Below are positions 3,475-63,078 of a DNA stretch of 64,000 bases, piece by piece (the stretch's first letter is position 1; the number at the start of each line of letters is the position of its first letter). Origin of the DNA: a virus (lineage: Duplodnaviria > Caudoviricetes); the IMG/VR virus record IMGVR_UViG_3300020576_006644, positions 32,001-96,000 of that record. The stretch is one strand, 5' to 3'. A program made the translations under genes and the position numbers. The notes under the pieces are model-generated. The model did no database searches. It was given only the letters and a program-made list of their open reading frames with translations, and was not told the origin of the DNA.

Positions 3475-4419
3475 TTACCCGCGCGTGGTGCCCAGCGCCG
3501 CAGCCACGCGGCCCGGATCTACCATCTGCAGGAGCAGAGAGATTTTGTCAGTCACGGTCATTCCGCTAGAGAACTCTCGGGCCACCTCGGGGAAGTAGTC
3601 GATGCACAGCGCCACGAGATCTGAATCCCTGACCTGCTCAAGTCGCCTGCGAAGGGCAGGGCGGTCCAACCTAGCTATCGGGGCTGGCACCGGCGAAGGA
3701 TTGTCACCCGCGGGCTGCGCAAACGCCTCAGCCACGGGCTCAATAAAAAGCCGCTCAGCCGCAGCCGCCTTCTCGACGTGGCTTGCTTGCGCAAAGCTGG
3801 CCTCCAGGCGCCGCCACTGCACCGACACCTCGGGCTCCGCCAGCTCCTTGGCCGCCCGCGCCGGGTCGCTGACCGCGTAGGCTGGGATCAGGCTCCGCGG
3901 GCCGTGGGCCAGCCACAGGATGCGGCTGTTGCCGCGCTCCACCCAGATGCCGGACCAGTCAGCCCCGGTCACACCGTCGACCAGCTTGCCGTCATAGTCG
4001 TCGAGCACGTTCCCGGTGATCTGACACCGGGGCAGCTTAGCGGTCGACGAGGAGATGGCGGCCGGCTGCACCACCAAAAGCCCCTTCCAGGTCGAGCGCT
4101 GGGCGGGCCGCTCCTTGAGGTCCTTGACGAGCGCCCGCGTCTCCGCCAGATCCGGCTGGCCGTTGCGCAGGACCACCCACGGCATCCCGCGGACGATCCG
4201 GCTCACCGCTGCGCGGGCGTCGGAGTCACCGGCCAGTGCCCGCTCCACCTCGTCGGCCTTGGCACCGCCGCCCTTGCACTCGGCGATGATGGTGGCGGCG
4301 CGCCCGATGGGGATGCCGAGCGCCTCCCCCAGGTCCTTGGCGCCGACGTGCGCCGCGCCCTCCGGGGTCCAGCCCTGCTTCTCCCACGCCTCTTTCTCTT
4401 TTTCGTTCAGGTCGAGCAT
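3475..4419 (-). CDS. Hypothetical protein with C-terminal effector-associated-domain (EAD)-like module
   Basis: C-terminal LRRRLEQVRDSDLVALCIDYFPEVAREFSSGMTVTDKISLLL. Confidence 0.55.
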   Translation of the reverse strand: MLDLNEKEKEAWEKQGWTPEGAAHVGAKDLGEALGIPIGRAATIIAECKGGGAKADEVERALAGDSDARAAVSRIVRGMPWVVLRNGQPDLAETRALVKDLKERPAQRSTWKGLLVVQPAAISSSTAKLPRCQITGNVLDDYDGKLVDGVTGADWSGIWVERGNSRILWLAHGPRSLIPAYAVSDPARAAKELAEPEVSVQWRRLEASFAQASHVEKAAAAERLFIEPVAEAFAQPAGDNPSPVPAPIARLDRPALRRRLEQVRDSDLVALCIDYFPEVAREFSSGMTVTDKISLLLQMVDPGRVAAALGTTRG

Positions 4420-32301: not shown

Positions 32302-32861
32302 GTTCACGATCTCCACGTTCAAAGGTTGAGCACCCACCAAATCTGATTACCCACCCGATCGCAATCCTGAACATCCACCCAGCCGAGCCGTTCCCACAGG
32401 TACGACCACGGGTACAAAAATCCTGGTCAAACTAAAATCTCCGACGGAACTACCGGAAAAGAAGTCACACACTAAACGGGGGTGGTGGGTGGTATCTAGG
32501 GGGACTAGGGCGGGCAAGGGGCCGGAGGCGCGGCGGGCAGCCGGCAGGGCGTTTTAAGGGCTGCAGAGCCCGGTGGCCGAGTTTTAGGGTGTCTGGGTCT
32601 CCGGTTTTTGTGTCTCGCCTTACATTTTGGACTCCTGTCCCCTGCGGTTTGGGGCTCTAACCACCCTGCCGGCTGCACCCCAACCACCACCTCGTCCCGT
32701 TTAGTAGGGTGACTTCTTTTTGGATGTCCCCGTCGGTGAGTTTTGCGTGACCACGATCTTTTGTGTGTCTGGGTGGGTTTGTGTCCAATCTGGGTAAGCT
32801 GGGATGCTGACCAAACGTCCAGGATTGCCTTGGCTGATCGGGCGGCTGTAGCGTCCAGCTC
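32302..32861. other. Non-coding divergent strand-switch region (origin/terminus or control region candidate)
   Basis: ~560 bp without a credible ORF; G/T-skewed tracts; SOS-like boxes at both ends. Confidence 0.5.
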
Positions 32862-33920
32862 ATGAAACCGACCCACTACCAGATCCTGGGGATCGCCAAG
32901 ACCGCTGCGGCTGAGGAGGTGAAGGCCGCCTTTCGCAGGCTGGCCCGGCTGAACCACCCCGATCGAAACCCGGGTGACAGGGCAGCCGAGGAGCGGTTCA
33001 AGCTGGCCGCTGCAGCCTACGAGGTGCTGTCCGACCCCGCCAAGCGTCAGCACTACGATCGCTTCGGCACCGCGGCCCCGATCGTCATCCCCAGCCGCAA
33101 GGGCCGCTACCTGATAGAGGGCCAGATCGCCTCCGGGGACCTCGCCGACATCTACAAGGCCAAGCGCGAGGCGGACGGGTGGCAGGTCGTCCTCAAGGTC
33201 GCCCGGTCGCCCGCGGTGAACGACCTCCTGGCGGCCGAGGCTGCGCGGCTGAAGGACCTGTTCCCGATCGCTGCCTCACCGATGGGGCCCGGGGTCCGCT
33301 ACCTGCCCAAGTTTTACGACAGCTTCCAGGTGGATGACGGGACGCGGCGGCAGGTGCTGGTGCTGGACTACCTCGCCGACTTCGCCACCTTCGAGCAGGT
33401 TCGGTCGCACTTCCCCGCCGGGGTGGCCCTGGAGCATGGGGTCTGGATGTTCAACCGCCTGCTGGAGGGCCTCGACTATGCGCACCGCCAGGGGCACGTT
33501 CACGGGGCGCTCGTGCCGTCGAACGCCATGGTTTGGCTCGACCCCATGGGGCACCTGTGCAAGATCATCGACTGGAGCTACGCCGGCAAGGTCGGCGAGC
33601 GCGTCAAGGCGATTTCCCCGAGCTGGCGGTCGTTTTACCCGCCCGAGGTCCTGGGGAAGCAGCCGGCCACCGCGGCGACCGACATCTATATGGCGGCCAA
33701 GCTCGTCGGCTACGTCCTGGGTGGCACCGAGGCGAGTCACTGGCTCCCGTCGGCCGCCCCCGACTACTTGCGGCGGTTCTTGACGGGCTGCTGTCTGCCG
33801 GACCCGCGGCAGCGCCCCCAGGGCGCCTGGGCCGCCCACGAAGAGTTCCGCGCCTACATGCAGGCGCATTACGGGCCGAAGAAGTTCGTGCCCTTTACCA
33901 ACCCGGGCTGGGCCCGGTAG
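32862..33920 (+). CDS. J-domain fused to protein-kinase-like (pseudokinase) domain
   Basis: HYQILG...HPDRNPGD J-domain; [13 protein letters not shown] (catalytic Asp absent), IIDWSY, YPPE, TDIY. Confidence 0.88.
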
Positions 33921-38665: not shown

Positions 38666-39134
38666 TTTCCCTGGAAATGGCTACCGGCCGGCTGTCCCCG
38701 CGCACCCTGACCAAGACCGGCTGCCCCCACCTGAAGGGGTAGAGCACCGAGTCGTTGAGCAGGTGGACGAGGCACAGCCCCTCCTTTAGCTCCCCGGTGG
38801 CCCAGATCGACTCGGTGTTTCCGTCCCAGTCGCGGAGAGCTACCTTGAACTCCCCGTGCTGCGCCCGGAGGGTGTCGATGAACGCCTTGTCGGGGTGCAG
38901 CGGCGCGCGGATCGAGAAGGGCGGCGGGTCGTCCTCGGGTTTCCACGATGATCCTGGCGAGGGGACCATCCGGCGGCGCTCTTTGAACAGCGGCGGCAGC
39001 TTCTCCTTGTGTTGGTCGCAGTAGTAGGCGTCCCCGGCGTAGTCTTTGTTGGAGATGTGTAGGTAAGGGTCGACCAGCACCACGCGGGTGGTCGCGGGGT
39101 CAGGACATCCGATCTCTGCACATTGGGTCTTCAT
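38649..39134 (-). CDS. Hypothetical protein with CxxxxC...YCxxH zinc motif
   Basis: ATGA overlap with the transporter stop. Confidence 0.6.
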   Translation of the reverse strand: MKTQCAEIGCPDPATTRVVLVDPYLHISNKDYAGDAYYCDQHKEKLPPLFKERRRMVPSPGSSWKPEDDPPPFSIRAPLHPDKAFIDTLRAQHGEFKVALRDWDGNTESIWATGELKEGLCLVHLLNDSVLYPFRWGQPVLVRVRGDSRPVAISRENGDRA

Positions 39135-40519
39135 GCCGCCCTCTTCATCTTGGGGACCAGCCGCAGCTTGGCGATCTGCTTGCCGGCCGCCTCCCACCGC
39201 TGCACGGCCTCCAGCTCCTTGGGTGGCTGCCCCGAGCCGACGAGCCTGGACAGCGGGCGCCACAGGAGCGCCACCAGCGCGGCGCCGGAGAGGCCTACCC
39301 CGGCCAGCACGGCGAAGTAGCCCGAGTGCGACAGCGCCGGCCACGCCACCCGGCCGATCTGCCCGGAGACGAAGCCGCCGACCGAGCTCGAAAGTAGCCA
39401 CACGCCGAGCAGGAACCCACGCAGCCGCTGCGGGGCGAGCCGCGCCACCAGCGCCGTTCCGATGGGGCTCACGAGCAGCTCTCCGATGGTGATGAGCAGG
39501 TAGAAGCCGAGGAGCCACGCGATGCTGACGCCCTTGGCGCTGCCGGCCGCCCCGACCCGCAGGAGCGCCGCCGCCGCCGCGGACAGCAGCAACCCGGCGA
39601 GCAGCATGTGGATGGGGCCGATCGGTGCGCCCTGCCGCCGCCGGTTCAGGGCCTTGACTGCCCACTCGATGACCGGGGTGAGCACCAGGATGCCGATCGG
39701 GTTGATGGCGTTCGTCAGCGTCGCGTACTCGGCTAGCCCGGCGACGCACTCTTTCGCCCAGAGCGTCAGCGACCCGCCGTCGGCGAGGTATACCGCCCAG
39801 AAGAGAGACGCCACCACGGAGACCGCCACGATCGCGGCCACGCGCCGCCCGGTGTCCGCTGGGTACGAGCCACGGTTCTCGCTGGTGGCGTCGGTGTCGA
39901 GTGGCTGGTCGAGGGCCTGGGCGAGAGGGGAGCGGTTGTCGACGAGGTGCCGGCGGAAGGTCCAGAAGGTGGCAAGGCCGATGCAGTGCCCGACAGCCGC
40001 CGACCCGAAGGCGAAGCCCCACCCGAGCCGGGTGACCATGACGGTCCCGAGGAGCGGCGCCACCATGGCCCCCAGGTTCACCGCCAGGTAGTAGCGGCTG
40101 AAGGCCTGCTCGTGCCGCGGGTCGCCCTCCTTATAGAGGGCGGAGAGCAGCGACTGCATGTTCGGCTTGAAAAGCCCATTGCCGACGACGATGAACCCCA
40201 TCGCTAGGATGAGCGCTGTCCGTGACTCCACCGTCATGATGAGGTGGCCGGCGGCGATGACGCACCCGCCTATGAGCACGGCCCGCTTGAGCCCGAGCAC
40301 CCGGTCGGCCAGCAGCCCGCCAAAGGGCGGCGTGAGGTAGACAAACCCCTGGAATGTGCCGAACATCTCCAGCGCCTGCGCGTCCGTCATCCCGAGGCGC
40401 TTGGTCATGTAGACAACGAGCAGCGCCCGCAGCAGGTAGTAGCCGAACCGTTCCCACAGCTCGGTAAAAAATAGGACGAGGAAACCTGGAGGGTGACGGT
40501 TTGGCAGCTGCTGCGGCAT
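39131..40519 (-). CDS. Proton-dependent oligopeptide transporter (POT/PTR, MFS)
   Basis: FFTELWERFGYY (ExxERFxYY), GGLLADRVLG, GNGLFKPN, FSRYYLAVNLGA, IGELLVSPIG; multiple TM helices. Confidence 0.92.
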   Translation of the reverse strand: MPQQLPNRHPPGFLVLFFTELWERFGYYLLRALLVVYMTKRLGMTDAQALEMFGTFQGFVYLTPPFGGLLADRVLGLKRAVLIGGCVIAAGHLIMTVESRTALILAMGFIVVGNGLFKPNMQSLLSALYKEGDPRHEQAFSRYYLAVNLGAMVAPLLGTVMVTRLGWGFAFGSAAVGHCIGLATFWTFRRHLVDNRSPLAQALDQPLDTDATSENRGSYPADTGRRVAAIVAVSVVASLFWAVYLADGGSLTLWAKECVAGLAEYATLTNAINPIGILVLTPVIEWAVKALNRRRQGAPIGPIHMLLAGLLLSAAAAALLRVGAAGSAKGVSIAWLLGFYLLITIGELLVSPIGTALVARLAPQRLRGFLLGVWLLSSSVGGFVSGQIGRVAWPALSHSGYFAVLAGVGLSGAALVALLWRPLSRLVGSGQPPKELEAVQRWEAAGKQIAKLRLVPKMKRAA

Positions 40520-40885: not shown

Positions 40886-41523
40886 CTCCCATCCAGTCAC
40901 TCATCCTCAAGGCCGTCTGCATCAACGTCCCGATCGGCATCCTGCTGCTCGGGCCGAAGGACGCGGTGCTCAAGTACATCTGGGCGCACCGCCACGACGA
41001 TAAGCCCAGCCTTCGCATGTGGCACTACGAGACCTTGGCGGTCTGCGCGCTTGTCGCCGCGGTCGTCCTCCTGTCGGGCAACGACCCGGTGGAGTGGGTC
41101 GGCTTCGCCGCGCTGACGCTGGCCCACGGGCGGAACTCGGTGATGTTCCGGCTCACTGAGGCGCAGCAGCACTCAAACCCCGTCGACCCGCACCATGTGG
41201 AGTGCTGGCGGTGGAACACCATCTACTTCCTGCTGGCTGAATGCTTCTGGGCGGCCTACTTCGTCCTGCACCGGAGCTGGGCGGCGCTGGCCGGGGTGGT
41301 GATCTTCGTCGGCTACGGGCAGTGGAGGCGGTGGTATGGAAGGCGCTCGCTGAAGTGGTTGGAGAAGGCCTTCCCGAGAGGCGGCTACCGCGAGCTGCCG
41401 ATCGACCCAGCGAAGATCAAGCCCGCGCAGGTCAAGGTCGTGATCGGTTCAATCGACAGTACATGTGACCACGGTTATGCCGACCGGGGCTTCTGTGCGA
41501 TTTGCCGTCCTCCTGAGACCTAG
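40882..41523 (+). CDS. Membrane protein
   Basis: Several hydrophobic helices. Confidence 0.65.
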   Translation: MTPIQSLILKAVCINVPIGILLLGPKDAVLKYIWAHRHDDKPSLRMWHYETLAVCALVAAVVLLSGNDPVEWVGFAALTLAHGRNSVMFRLTEAQQHSNPVDPHHVECWRWNTIYFLLAECFWAAYFVLHRSWAALAGVVIFVGYGQWRRWYGRRSLKWLEKAFPRGGYRELPIDPAKIKPAQVKVVIGSIDSTCDHGYADRGFCAICRPPET

Positions 41524-43019
41524 ATCTCCCCGATCCCCACGATCTCCGCTCGCATCCCCTTCTCTTCGTAAGCCCTCCTCCTCGCCTCCGCGTGTCGGCG
41601 CAGCCACTGCCCCGGCAGCGTGAGGCTGCGCCGCTTGGCCGCCTCCGCCTTCGAGTCCTCGTCGGCGAAGTCGAATATCGTCACCGACTCCTTCTTCCCC
41701 ATCTCCGCGCAGCGCCGGCAGTTCTCGGTGCGGCAGATGCGCCCCCCGCGCCCCCCGCGCTGGATGGCCTCGATGGGGCTGCGCCCAGAGGCAGCGTTTA
41801 TGCACCAGTAGGCGTGGATGATGTCGGTGTTCTGCTTGAAGATCTTTGAGCAGATGATGTTGTCGATCTCCCCGCGCTCGAAGCGCTCAATGAGGTCCTT
41901 GCGTGCCTCCGAGCTGTCATCCCCGAAGACGAAGGCGGACTTTATCCCGACGTGTTCGGCGATCTTGGCGAGGTAGCGCCCGTGGTCGATGTCGCGGACG
42001 AAGGTGAGGATGCCCGTCTTCTTGCGGCGCCAGATCTCGGCGACGAGCGCGTTCCGAGCCTTGGACAGCGACACGGCTCGCTGGTAGCCGTCGGAGCTGT
42101 AGTGCGGGGTATCCGGCTGGTCGCAGCGGACCATGACCACCCGGCACTCGGAGATGATCCCCTGCGACTCCAGCTCCGCTCGCGGCACCCGGTAGACGAT
42201 CGGTCCGAACTGCGCTCGAACCGCCGCGTCCCGGTTGTCGCTGCGCCCCCCGACGGTGGCGGATAGCCCGATGCGGACGACGCAGCGGGGCATCGCCCGC
42301 AGGATGCGCTGGCTGCGCGGCGAGCCGCTCATCTGCACCTCGTCGTACAGCACCCAGCCGACCTGCCCGAGGAGCTCTAGAGCCTTTGGCGACCACCTGT
42401 CCCCGTCAAACTGTTGGTCGATGGTGGCGGGGCTGGCGACCGTGATTCGCCGGTCCCCTTGCCACAGCCCGTCACCGATGAGGCCAGGATCTTCCCCGCT
42501 GCGCAGCGCGATGCGGCCGGGCTTTGGTGATTTTGTGCGCCCATCACCGTCGAGTATTGCGCGGGAGTCGTATTTTGGCAGCGGGTCGCCGAGTTGGTGG
42601 ACGCCGCCGATGTCGTCGCAGAGGACCAGCCCGCGGCCGAGCAGCGACATGGCCAGGGCCGCGATGATCTCACCCTTGCCGCCGGCGGTGGGCACGTCGA
42701 TGCAGCCGACGACAGCTCGCAGCGCTGCCTCGACGGCCTCGCGCTGGTGGGGGAGCAGCCAGGCGAGCGGCAGTTGCCGCCGCCCAGGGAGGGTGCGGAA
42801 GTCGTTTCTGGCAGCGCCGACCCCACGCGAGCGCAGCGCCGACTCAGCCTCCTGCAGCAGCCCGATCGGGAAGCTGCGGGTCATGGGGTCGTACAGGCAC
42901 ATTCGCTCGGGCCGCCCGCGGCGCTTGCCGAGGTCGTAGGTCAGCTCCTCGTGCAGCGCCTGCAGCTCTTCGGGACTGCCGACGGCGCGGACGATCGCGG
43001 GGTGGACCTGGAGAATCAC
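41520..43019 (-). CDS. SF2 helicase (UvsW/Rad25-like)
   Basis: LLPHQ, PTAGGKG, DEVQ, GLSAT, IQRGGRGGR. Confidence 0.88.
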   Translation of the reverse strand: MILQVHPAIVRAVGSPEELQALHEELTYDLGKRRGRPERMCLYDPMTRSFPIGLLQEAESALRSRGVGAARNDFRTLPGRRQLPLAWLLPHQREAVEAALRAVVGCIDVPTAGGKGEIIAALAMSLLGRGLVLCDDIGGVHQLGDPLPKYDSRAILDGDGRTKSPKPGRIALRSGEDPGLIGDGLWQGDRRITVASPATIDQQFDGDRWSPKALELLGQVGWVLYDEVQMSGSPRSQRILRAMPRCVVRIGLSATVGGRSDNRDAAVRAQFGPIVYRVPRAELESQGIISECRVVMVRCDQPDTPHYSSDGYQRAVSLSKARNALVAEIWRRKKTGILTFVRDIDHGRYLAKIAEHVGIKSAFVFGDDSSEARKDLIERFERGEIDNIICSKIFKQNTDIIHAYWCINAASGRSPIEAIQRGGRGGRICRTENCRRCAEMGKKESVTIFDFADEDSKAEAAKRRSLTLPGQWLRRHAEARRRAYEEKGMRAEIVGIGEI

Positions 43020-43312
43020 AGGCCCTCAGAGGTGACTGGCGCCGGGCCACGGAGGATGATCTCTTGAACGTAGACCCCGTCTCCCTCGGTGGGTGTCCAC
43101 ATCCATCCGGTCTCGACGTACTTGCGCACTACCTGATGAAGCAGTGCTACACGGGTTTTTATCGGGAGGTCTACATGTACGACATCGCCAAACCCTTTGA
43201 ATTTGGCTCGGAGTTGGTCGTCGATGTGCTTCTCAAGGGCGGCAATTTTTGCGTCTCGTCTGGCGTGTTCGGCCGCTGCTAGCTCGGCGCGTAGCTGGGT
43301 GGGAGTGACCAT
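43016..43312 (-). CDS. Hypothetical protein
   Basis: Follows SOS box 43344. Confidence 0.6.
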   Translation of the reverse strand: MVTPTQLRAELAAAEHARRDAKIAALEKHIDDQLRAKFKGFGDVVHVDLPIKTRVALLHQVVRKYVETGWMWTPTEGDGVYVQEIILRGPAPVTSEGL

Positions 43313-43361
43313 GCACCGACGTAAGCACCATCGGCGGGGGAGGGCAAGCCTGAACGTGCGG

Positions 43362-43916
43362 TCAGGGCAGCGTAGCCTTGAGCCAGTCAAGCACGCGGCT
43401 GGCCCGGTGGTAGTGCGGCGAGGTCGGGTCCTCGTAGTACATGATGATGTCGGCCATCTTCTCGATGTCTTCGCGCGGGAGCGGCGGCACCGCTTTGTCG
43501 GTGAGCCGGTAGCCGCAGCTCTTGTACCGCCCGCCGGCCTTCTCGATGTAGCCGTGGTGGGTGAGGACCTTGATGTGGTCGTTGACCCCGTTGGTAGAGC
43601 GGGCACCGAGGGCTGCGCCCAGGTCGCGCAGGGTCGGGGGTTTGCCGCCGCTCTGCCGCGTGAGCTCGATGATCTTGCGGAGGTAGATGGCGGCCCTCGG
43701 CGCCAGATCCGGGTAGGCGGGGTCAGGACTGACCGAATCCCGTCGCGGGTGCCACGTTTTGGCCGCTTCGGGGACCGGGCACCAGGCGTACAGTGTCTGT
43801 GTGGTGACGCCGAGCTGGCGGGCGGCGGCGCAGTAGTTGCCGTACTTCTTGCGGATCCCCTCGTAGCCGAGCGCTGTCGTCTCGGCCCGCATCGGGTGGT
43901 GCTTGTACTTGTTCAT
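43362..43916 (-). CDS. HTH + LexA N-terminal DNA-binding domain protein lacking the S24 autoprotease domain
   Basis: NYCAAARQLGVTTQTLYAW HTH; GKPPTLRDLGAALGARSTNGVNDHIKVLTHHGYIEK resembles myxobacterial LexA DBD; no Ser-Lys peptidase domain. Confidence 0.82.
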   Translation of the reverse strand: MNKYKHHPMRAETTALGYEGIRKKYGNYCAAARQLGVTTQTLYAWCPVPEAAKTWHPRRDSVSPDPAYPDLAPRAAIYLRKIIELTRQSGGKPPTLRDLGAALGARSTNGVNDHIKVLTHHGYIEKAGGRYKSCGYRLTDKAVPPLPREDIEKMADIIMYYEDPTSPHYHRASRVLDWLKATLP

Positions 43917-44009
43917 GCTCGGCAACATGCCCGCAGCCGCCGCCGGGGGCAATCAGGAACGTATGTTCAGGATTGCAATCTCAAGCCGGGCCAAGTTTCA
44001 ATGCGGCGT

Positions 44010-44870
44010 ATGGGATACCTACACATTGAAAACTTGTATAAGTCGCAGGACATCTTGCTCTTTCGGGAGTGCTACGCCCTGGAGAAAGTCCACGGCACGA
44101 GCGCTCACGTCAAGTGGAGCGAGGGCTGCGTCCTTAATTTCTTCTCGGGTGGTGAGTCGCACGAGAGGTTCAAGGCCCTCTTCGATCAGAATGATCTGAC
44201 GAATCGCCTCCGGGCGCTCACGCATCCAGACATCACCATCTTTGGTGAGGCATACGGCGGCAAGTGCCAGGGTATGTCCGCGACTTACGGTCCCGAGCTG
44301 CGCTTTATCGCCTTTGACGTGAAGGTTGGCGAGTATTGGCTATCGGTGCCCGATGCGGAGCAGGTCGCTACAGCTCTCGGGCTGGAGTTCGTCCCATACG
44401 TCCGCTTACCGACCGACCTCTCCAACCTAGATTGGTGTCGGGATGCCCCATCGATCCTGGCGGCGAATCGCGGATGTGGGTTAGATAAGAAGAAAGAGGG
44501 TGTCGTTCTCCGCCCGCTTGTTGAGCTGACCAAGAACAACGGCGACCGGATCATCGCCAAGCACAAGCGGGACGAGTTCCGTGAGCGCGCCACACCGCAA
44601 AAGGTCATCGACCCGGACAAGCTGAAGGTTCTCGCCGATGCGGACGCCATCGCCGCCGAGTGGGTGACGGAGATGCGGCTGGCGCACGTCATCGACAAGA
44701 TCTGCCCCGTACCCGACATTGGAGCCACCCCCAAAGTAATCGCCGCGATGGTGGAGGACGTGGAGCGCGAGGCGGCGGGCGAGATCGTCGTCAGCAAGGA
44801 GGCCCGTGCCGCCATCGGCCGCCGCACGGCGCAGCTCTTTAAGGCGCGGATCGCCACCATCCTCCGCTAG
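44010..44870 (+). CDS. RNA ligase (Rnl2-like nucleotidyltransferase)
   Basis: Motif I EKVHGT, IFGEAYG, FIAFDV, KEGVVLR, IIAKHK. Confidence 0.82.
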   Translation: MGYLHIENLYKSQDILLFRECYALEKVHGTSAHVKWSEGCVLNFFSGGESHERFKALFDQNDLTNRLRALTHPDITIFGEAYGGKCQGMSATYGPELRFIAFDVKVGEYWLSVPDAEQVATALGLEFVPYVRLPTDLSNLDWCRDAPSILAANRGCGLDKKKEGVVLRPLVELTKNNGDRIIAKHKRDEFRERATPQKVIDPDKLKVLADADAIAAEWVTEMRLAHVIDKICPVPDIGATPKVIAAMVEDVEREAAGEIVVSKEARAAIGRRTAQLFKARIATILR

Positions 44871-45577
44871 TTCTCCCCCAGCGCCTCCTTCAGCGCCCAC
44901 CGCAGTCCCGCCTCCAGCTTGAACTTCCCTCGGGCCCCGGCCCGCTTGCAGGCTCGCGACAACAGCGCCTTCAGCTCCCGCTGCCCGGCCGCCGTCGAGC
45001 AGCTCACCTCCAGCAGCGGCGACTGCTCGCTGCGCTCCGCCGGCGCGTCAGCGTCTCTCGAGCCGCTCCCGGCGTCCGGGTCCGGCAGGTCGGGCAGCTG
45101 CGCGCCGGCGCCGTCGGTTCCCGGCTCCACCCCGAGCAGCAGGTCCATGTCGGCGCGGTCCCAGCCGGCCGCGGCGTACAGGTCCTCGCGCGACCAACCC
45201 TCCCCGTGGAGGAACTTGAGGTCGGCGGCCACCACGTCCTGCCGCGGCTCCCCGCGCCAGCGGTTCAGCGCCAGCCGCAGCGCCCGGAGCTGTGCGTCGG
45301 TCATCGACTCGGGGTAAACGAGCGCCGGCAGCTCGACAAGGCCAGCCACCCGGGCAGCTCGGAGGCGGTGGTTGCCGTCGACGATGTCGTACTGCTTGCC
45401 GGGTAGGGCTCGGAGGGTGATCGCCTGAGCGAAGTCGAGCCGCCGCACCGCCTCACATAGACCGGCGAAGGATGCCTCATCCATCGAATTGGGATTTTCG
45501 TCCGTCGGTGTGTCTTGGCAATCAGCGACGGGGACTACGAGCTGGATGGGGCGGGGCGGGGCTTTCGAGGGGGACAT
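44867..45577 (-). CDS. ParB/Srx-like N-terminal domain protein
   Basis: ENPNSM, YDIVDGNHRLRAA, LALNRWRG. Confidence 0.8.
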   Translation of the reverse strand: MSPSKAPPRPIQLVVPVADCQDTPTDENPNSMDEASFAGLCEAVRRLDFAQAITLRALPGKQYDIVDGNHRLRAARVAGLVELPALVYPESMTDAQLRALRLALNRWRGEPRQDVVAADLKFLHGEGWSREDLYAAAGWDRADMDLLLGVEPGTDGAGAQLPDLPDPDAGSGSRDADAPAERSEQSPLLEVSCSTAAGQRELKALLSRACKRAGARGKFKLEAGLRWALKEALGEN

Positions 45578-62955: not shown

Positions 62956-63078
62956 CTTTTACACTCGGAAGTTAGGTAACTGAAACTGCGTTCAGTAGTC
63001 TCAGAAAACTGAGGATTAGCCGGTTCGTAAATGGTTGAACCTTTTGTCTAGCCGTCGGTGAGCTTGTGAAGACGTGTG

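Follow-up and report, generated by a model that had tools for sequence, protein, structure and literature searches.

We found that an uncultured 113-kb tailed phage encodes a truncated LexA homolog, here called mini-LexA, that lacks the S24 autoprotease domain and whose gene is bracketed by two LexA-type boxes. Based on sequence, and with only a little more than even confidence, we read mini-LexA as a RecA-insensitive, autoregulated, operator-binding regulator of a phage regulon. It would most likely act as an activator, at promoters in which a box is joined to the -35 element.

The window is the 64,000-nt stretch of DNA that we analyzed, bases 32001-96000 of an IMG/VR virus record (IMGVR_UViG_3300020576_006644) of 112,623 bp that is rated complete (65% G+C). 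An identical 77-bp repeat is present at both ends of the record, indicating that it is probably a circular assembly. Close relatives of the phage were not found among 50,697 deposited phage genomes. Genes beyond the window were called with a crude, GC3-based in-house caller.

The mini-LexA gene and its protein

The mini-LexA coding sequence occupies 43362-43928 on the minus strand, with a TGA stop codon at 43362-43364, as judged from the list of open reading frames, the translation, homologs and synteny. The open reading frame, listed as 43362-43952 (minus strand), has a high GC3 coding score. We found eight homologs (48-96% identity) in a collection of 5.8 billion proteins. All eight can be aligned through to the C-terminal end and keep the N-terminal sequence MLPSM or MLxxM, so we place the start at the ATG at 43928, giving a protein of 188 amino acids. 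The second ATG, at 43916, is a possible alternative, leaderless start. An earlier note on this DNA had drawn the gene at 43362-43976. There is a real and conserved minus-strand gene from 43362, but position 43976, and the TTG at 43952, fall in the operator and outside the gene.

Mini-LexA was modeled with AlphaFold from 11 family sequences (mean pLDDT 80). The model shows a three-helix helix-turn-helix (HTH) at aa 12-49, followed by a disordered linker, a winged helix at aa 77-142 and a hairpin of two helices at aa 152-185. The winged helix (43503-43700, minus strand) is the LexA-type head. Pfam LexA_DNA_bind (PF01726) matched it with a score of 33.7 bits (cut-off 23.7), at aa 98-141 in the numbering of the 196-aa reading, and this was the only significant Pfam match in the protein. 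The top Foldseek match was the E. coli LexA-DNA complex (3JSO; rmsd 1.5 Å over 68 columns), and VIA-align, an independent all-against-representatives alignment, put LexA from T. maritima (Z 10.7) and the DNA-binding domain of E. coli LexA (Z 10.3) at the top. A sequence search of the PDB with mini-LexA returned LexA DNA-binding domains only. The NCBIfam LexA equivalog TIGR00498 scored 26.7 bits, below its cut-off of 110.95, and matched at profile positions 16-64 only, that is, in the head.

The two other folded parts are less familiar. The N-terminal HTH (43782-43895, minus strand; helices at residues 12-29, 32-39 and 43-49, pLDDT ~86) had weak, generic Pfam matches only (P22_Cro, MerR and HTH_8; E 0.05-0.13) and no match in fold searches. 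Its motif is conserved throughout the extended family, and it could direct mini-LexA to other DNA. The C-terminal hairpin (43374-43475, minus strand; helices at residues 152-165 and 171-185, pLDDT 84-93) had neither a Pfam match nor a fold match. It is the best-conserved part of the family, with 88-92% identity in members P0003-P0006 compared to 27-56% for the N-terminal HTH, linker and winged helix.

The S24 peptidase domain, the Ala-Gly cleavage site and the Ser/Lys dyad are absent from mini-LexA, as judged from Pfam and from a C-terminus made of two helices only. Without the S24 autoprotease, mini-LexA cannot be inactivated by RecA*-stimulated self-cleavage. The conserved hairpin may replace the S24 domain as a surface for dimerization or for an effector. 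The earlier note had proposed an N-terminal HTH joined to a LexA DNA-binding domain with no S24 peptidase, and insensitivity to RecA, and both proposals are borne out: the profile search places LexA_DNA_bind above cut-off, structure prediction gives LexA as the best fold, and there is no autoprotease domain on which RecA* could act. A separate S24 gene that complements mini-LexA would have told against the proposal. We searched all 112,623 bp of the phage for Peptidase_S24 (PF00717) and found no match at E <= 1.

The recognition helix of mini-LexA, RSTNGVNDHIKVL (aa 110-122; 43563-43601, minus strand), aligns to RSPNAAEEHLKAL, residues 38-50 of E. coli LexA. E. coli LexA contacts DNA through Ser39, Asn41, Ala42, Glu44 and Glu45 (PMC3091678). 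At these positions mini-LexA has S, N, G, N and D; the Ser and Asn are kept, and all five are the residues found in LexA of the Myxococcota type. The string RSTNGVNDH is identical in abundant full-length LexAs (LexA_DNA_bind plus S24), and 114 of the 119 nearest LexAs read STNGVNDHL. Organism labels among the nearest full-length LexAs are all Myxococcales, Polyangiaceae or Deltaproteobacteria; another LexA cluster, labeled Myxococcota, has the helix RSTNGVSDH. The earlier note had called this helix myxobacterial, and the identical string in full-length LexAs labeled Myxococcales and Polyangiaceae agrees. Over the whole head, mini-LexA is ~41% identical to a Myxococcota LexA.

Because the helix is identical, the host LexA could read the same boxes, and so the boxes alone do not single out mini-LexA. 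Cross-talk of mini-LexA with host LexA and with host SOS genes would be expected. We also considered an actinobacterial host, which would fit the leaderless genes described below and a CGAAC-N4-GTTC core. The LexA of actinobacteria has a different helix, and we set this host aside because the labels on the nearest LexAs with the same helix are all Myxococcota or Deltaproteobacteria (other phyla were not surveyed).

The boxes and their putative promoters

The upstream operator of mini-LexA (43949-43976) contains a box with its core at 43955-43970, AGGAACGTATGTTCAG on the plus strand, between GCAATC (43949-43954) and GATTGC (43971-43976). The core has two mismatches to CTGAAC-N4-GTTCAG and scores 17.4 bits with a position weight matrix (PWM). 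It lies where the earlier note had described it, inside an inverted repeat common to mini-LexA and the divergent RNA ligase gene (44010-44870, plus strand; Pfam RNA_ligase PF09414, 46 bits). Two divergent promoters appear to share this operator. The putative mini-LexA promoter (43916-43952, minus strand) has a -35 element TTGCCC at 43947-43952, a 17-nt spacer and a -10-like hexamer CATGTT at 43924-43929, with the ATG at 43916 seven nt on; this geometry is common to 23 other box-flank promoters. The putative RNA ligase promoter (43973-44012, plus strand) has a -35 element TTGCAA at 43973-43978, an 18-nt spacer and a -10 element TTCAAT at 43997-44002, followed by the ATG at 44010. The RNA ligase gene is adjoined by a gene for a ParB_N-domain protein (236 aa; 44867-45577, minus strand). 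No ParA partner is encoded in the genome, and a role in partition is therefore less likely for this protein than one as a ParB-like nuclease or DNA-binding protein.

The downstream operator (43344-43365) has a core at 43350-43365 and a GCTTGC flank at 43344-43349. Its box has one mismatch to CTGAAC-N4-GTTCAG (PWM score 20.2 bits) and overlaps the end of mini-LexA, with the TGA at 43362-43364 being box positions 2-4. The earlier note had taken it as a second box of the mini-LexA gene. Its position and its overlap with the stop codon stand, but it more probably belongs to the next operon (41520-43312, minus strand) as its operator and promoter. This operon consists of a 98-aa open reading frame (43016-43312) and a 499-aa helicase (41520-43019; Pfam Helicase_C). 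The putative promoter of this operon (43310-43347, minus strand) has a -35 element TTGCCC at 43342-43347, a 17-nt spacer and a -10 element TTACGT at 43319-43324, followed by the ATG at 43310-43312. A strict sigma-70 scan of 43000-44200 found no promoter. This is consistent with, although not proof of, weak promoters that depend on a factor.

Boxes of this kind are far more frequent than expected and are confined to intergenic DNA. Allowing up to two mismatches to CTGAAC-N4-GTTCAG, there were 14 in the window compared to 2.19 expected, and none of 100 shuffled sequences reached 14. The same search found 25 in the genome. A PWM built from the palindrome sites, applied with a minimum score of 12 bits, found 29 sites genome-wide, compared to ~2 in shuffles. 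All 29 are intergenic; the sole apparent exception vanishes if the gene concerned starts at an ATG 23 nt past the box. The set of phage SOS boxes proposed in the earlier note is therefore present, and two of its members bracket the mini-LexA gene. The SOS box of M. xanthus is CTRHAMRYBYGTTCAGS, with one strong CTGAAC half (PMC9705874). The phage boxes share this form, including the strong half, and 11 sites are within one mismatch of the consensus. None of the phage sites matched the exact M. xanthus consensus perfectly.

Most boxes are joined to a -35-like element in a fixed register. Of the 29 boxes, 22 are directly adjoined by NNTTGN (usually GATTGC), which has a background of 0.7% per position; 15 of the 46 GATTGC or GCAATC hexamers in the genome touch a box. 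These 22 boxes, which we call the first type, have 24 such flanks (two boxes are bidirectional), and the box ends exactly 2 nt before a weak, putative TTGCnn -35 element. When the 24 flanks were aligned, the column 17-18 nt past TTGCnn was A in 14 of 24 (background 17.5%) and the preceding column was T-rich. These columns have the spacing expected of a -10 element and appear to be a weak signal of one. The putative first-type promoters precede early and middle genes, including mini-LexA, the RNA ligase gene and the helicase operon.

Boxes of a second type (~8) precede a TAGGAT/TATCCT hexamer, which in six cases is 9-10 nt from the box, with an ATG 6-9 nt after the hexamer. They are found before baseplate-wedge, baseplate and portal genes. 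Given these distances, the box would cover the -35 region, and the mRNAs appear to lack a leader. The center of the box would be near -45.5 in first-type promoters and near -30.5 in second-type promoters. We also tried reading the box itself as a promoter for an ECF sigma factor (GAAC...CGT), and rejected this because the elements are 2-4 nt apart rather than ~16.

Two further features of the boxes and promoters were observed. Two boxes (window 62980-62995 and G000:C1:14622-14637) lie in a near-identical repeat, CTGAAACTGCGTTCAG followed by tagtctcagaaaactgagg, in islands that are richer in A+T and without the GATTGC flank. In addition, a -10-like hexamer precedes the ATG by only 6-9 nt in many genes that lack a Shine-Dalgarno sequence (window 43310-43324, 32847-32864 and 65044-65062; contig L084 5020-5037), which suggests that leaderless mRNAs are widespread in this phage.

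The box and mini-LexA were found together in two genomes, this phage and a syntenic metagenome contig (L002). The two are 84% identical in the ParB-like protein, 81% in the helicase, 78% in a POT transporter, 86% in a 136-aa protein and 58% in mini-LexA; the RNA ligase gene is absent from L002. Six boxes are present in 14 kb of L002. Both boxes that flank mini-LexA are kept at the same places (the downstream box is identical), as are both putative promoters, almost base for base. The POT transporter, a POT/PTR2-family MFS peptide transporter of 462 aa (39131-40519, minus strand; Pfam 145 bits) in the early region, is unusual cargo for a phage. Its closest cellular homologs are 26-45% identical and come from unrelated phyla, and as a clue to the host it gave nothing beyond these matches.

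The end of the mini-LexA gene is unusually similar between the phage and L002. From the last ~46 codons through the downstream box and promoter as far as the next ATG (window ~43313-43500; L002 ~4050-4245), the DNA is 96-97% identical. Among identical residues of the tail, 38 of 41 use the same codon, compared to 65-74% in neighboring genes. This block would be either a recombination junction or block, or the region under the strongest constraint, at the level of the DNA or of a protein surface.

A more distant relative, IMGVR_UViG_3300015610_001233 (G001; L086, L088 and L089), has 31-55% protein identity over structural genes. Its 28-kb structural fragment has one box at 12 bits or more, and no LexA head was found in that fragment. 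With only one box there, the set of operators is not ancestral to the wider group but specific to the closer clade. A scan for the composite operator pattern returned two viral contigs, the G001 fragment and an unrelated 47-kb phage. The latter has no LexA head, and we dismiss its single site as a chance match. Viral contigs yielded no relatives when scanned with mini-LexA, an alignment of the family (A1), the helicase, P0011 or P0017, and a scan of genome contigs with A1 found nothing. Further relatives are present on contigs of 68-104 kb.

Probable role of mini-LexA in the phage

We propose that mini-LexA, with its Myxococcota-type head, extra N-terminal HTH and helical hairpin, serves as the phage's truncated LexA homolog and would bind CYGRAC-N4-GTTCAG boxes at ~29 phage promoters. 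These would include its own promoter, giving autoregulation, and that of the next operon. There is a precedent in the Betatectivirus GIL01, in which gp6, a truncated LexA, binds a palindrome centered at -43.5 and activates the late promoter P3 (Fornelos et al. 2018, PMC6182141). Since the box center near -45.5 is close to the gp6 arrangement, the most likely action of mini-LexA at first-type promoters, which are weak and early or middle, would be to recruit the host RNA polymerase. At the ~8 late structural promoters, bound mini-LexA would either substitute for recognition of the -35 element or repress.

The earlier note had offered three roles: shut-off of the phage regulon after induction, activation of that regulon, or silencing of the host SOS response. 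Sequence alone cannot choose among these, but promoter geometry and the gp6 precedent lead us to favor activation at most promoters. The words "after induction" presume a temperate phage. Searches of the phage genome turned up no recombinase of the tyrosine or serine family and no ParA-type ATPase, RecA, sigma-70 region 2 or S24 protein, and no phage-encoded sigma factor was detected. With none of the markers of lysogeny (integrase, ParA, S24 repressor) found, this part of the proposal is unsupported.

It is possible, although we are doubtful, that the boxes are primarily operators for the host LexA that tie phage promoters to the host SOS response, and that mini-LexA is an uncleavable competitor at phage boxes or host SOS boxes. 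Mini-LexA would then displace host LexA from phage promoters, or keep host SOS boxes (those of lexA, recA2-type genes and SOS-controlled prophages) shut during infection. In form, and also in their asymmetry, the boxes agree with the M. xanthus SOS box, shared specificity is expected from a helix identical to that of Myxococcota LexA, and in GIL01 phage promoters are controlled by the host LexA (PMC6182141). However, 22 of the 29 boxes lie beside the -35 element and not over the core promoter, which is a poor place for a classical LexA repressor, and their fixed register to the -35 and -10 suggests a positive role. The lack of detectable lysogeny genes also weighs against host LexA control. 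A variant in which mini-LexA poisons host LexA by joining it as a subunit is unlikely, since LexA dimerizes through the S24 domain that mini-LexA lacks.

A more far-reaching proposal, which we consider rather improbable, is that this phage, lacking lysogeny genes, controls almost all its promoters by means of a host LexA head that it has captured and that is uncleavable but still reads the host SOS box. If so, cleavable host LexA and mini-LexA would compete at every phage promoter and at host SOS genes, and the whole lytic program would be wired to, and would override, the host DNA-damage signal. The replacement of the -35 element by the box at late promoters would then amount to a LexA-based appropriation of promoters.

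Mini-LexA could also be a general uncleavable repressor, of the immunity type or one that delays late genes, that keeps the promoters with boxes closed, including its own, until replicating phage genomes titrate it away. Repression is the classical function of LexA heads, the box would cover the -35 region at the ~8 late promoters, and the autoregulatory placement of boxes is typical of repressors. In addition, relatives have the same boxes but differ in the N-terminal and head parts of the protein, a pattern reminiscent of immunity regions. We nevertheless consider a general repressor unlikely: most boxes are upstream of the -35, the promoters look intrinsically weak, no integrase or partition system was found that would serve lysogeny, and an operator for a repressor would not have to keep a fixed register to both -35 and -10.

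Finally, gp6 binds a palindrome different from the host LexA box despite 44% identity to the host LexA head (PMC6182141), and mini-LexA, with a second HTH and a head only ~41% identical to a Myxococcota LexA, might likewise have drifted to another DNA target or use mainly its N-terminal HTH, the nearby boxes being unrelated to it; this is very unlikely, given that the five E. coli LexA contact positions carry Myxococcota-type residues, that boxes lie on both sides of the gene in two diverged phages, and that mini-LexA is the sole LexA-type head encoded by the complete phage.

If, as we favor, mini-LexA binds the boxes, then a host repressor head minus its damage sensor would have become a master regulator of the phage with host operator specificity kept. 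It would also make for simple experiments, with one small protein, a site of 16 bp and ~29 promoters in two fixed geometries. In this system it would be possible to ask how LexA-type heads activate, and whether such mimics block the host SOS response or silence rival prophages that are SOS-inducible.

Comparison with known systems

To our knowledge, GIL01 gp6 is the only truncated LexA that has been characterized. Like mini-LexA, it is a phage-encoded LexA winged-helix head without the S24 autoprotease, and both phages carry LexA-type boxes. The gp6 palindrome lies by or over the -35 region, with its center at -43.5, and the mini-LexA boxes would lie similarly, with their center probably at about -45.5. 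There are also clear differences. Whereas gp6 is roughly the head alone, mini-LexA also has an extra HTH at its N-terminus and, at the other end, a conserved helical tail. The gp6 protein has evolved a site that is not that of the host, GaCACAC...GTGTGaC (PMC6182141), while mini-LexA keeps a host-type helix, with boxes of the SOS-box form. Finally, gp6 acts at one promoter in a 15-kb temperate tectivirus, and mini-LexA would act at ~29 promoters in a 113-kb tailed phage in which no lysogeny genes were found. A tblastn search of 50,697 phage records with mini-LexA gave one weak match (E 0.01, an unannotated gut phage) and none to tectiviruses, and the likeness to gp6 is thus one of kind and not of orthology. 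If mini-LexA binds the boxes, the gp6 case, one promoter and a changed specificity, would be extended to a genome-wide regulon.

Phage LexA heads without S24 are already common and annotated, and mini-LexA belongs to a known kind. Stand-alone heads include a 77-aa protein of Mycobacterium phage Wildcat, BFVD entries from Tectiviridae and uncultured Caudovirales, and PHROG 362 and 3502. They have the same domain, also without S24, but are mostly single-domain and uncharacterized. Small "LexA DNA-binding domain" proteins, most of them from viruses, likewise make up the closest ESM Atlas clusters and BFVD structures. When 1.84 billion representatives were searched with a profile, there were 2,303 matches, and most of the best 150 are proteins of 77-170 aa without S24 and with the helix STNGVxDH. 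The many short metagenome proteins of this kind suggest that truncated LexA is a common and unstudied strategy. Two metagenomic proteins, P0013 (162 aa) and P0018 (280 aa), have two tandem LexA_DNA_bind domains and no S24, and may be single-chain pseudo-dimers of the head. The architecture of HTH, LexA head and tail is confined to ~8 close and ~6 distant members. What is new here is the retention of a host-type helix and operator form, the two added modules, and the ~29 operators fused to promoters.

Mini-LexA and the LexA of Myxococcota share the RSTNGVNDH helix, the fold, and an operator form with a strong CTGAAC half. Unlike Myxococcota LexA, mini-LexA has no S24 domain, cleavage site or Ser/Lys dyad, and it has extra modules at both the N- and C-termini. 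The scale of the regulon also differs: M. xanthus LexA directly represses only ~five genes (PMC9705874), and the phage carries 29 sites.

Other phage regulators are similar in arrangement only. Phage repressors of the S24 type, such as those like lambda CI, combine an HTH with a self-cleaving S24 domain that mini-LexA lacks; lambda CI itself has the S24 domain and is cleaved in a RecA-dependent manner. The action of CI at OR, where it activates PRM and represses PR, is an analogy without homology: a factor bound by the -35 element activates one promoter and covers the divergent one. Middle promoters of phage T4 are a second such analogy, again without homology. There, the box bound by MotA, which needs AsiA, shows that the site of a factor can replace a -35 element.
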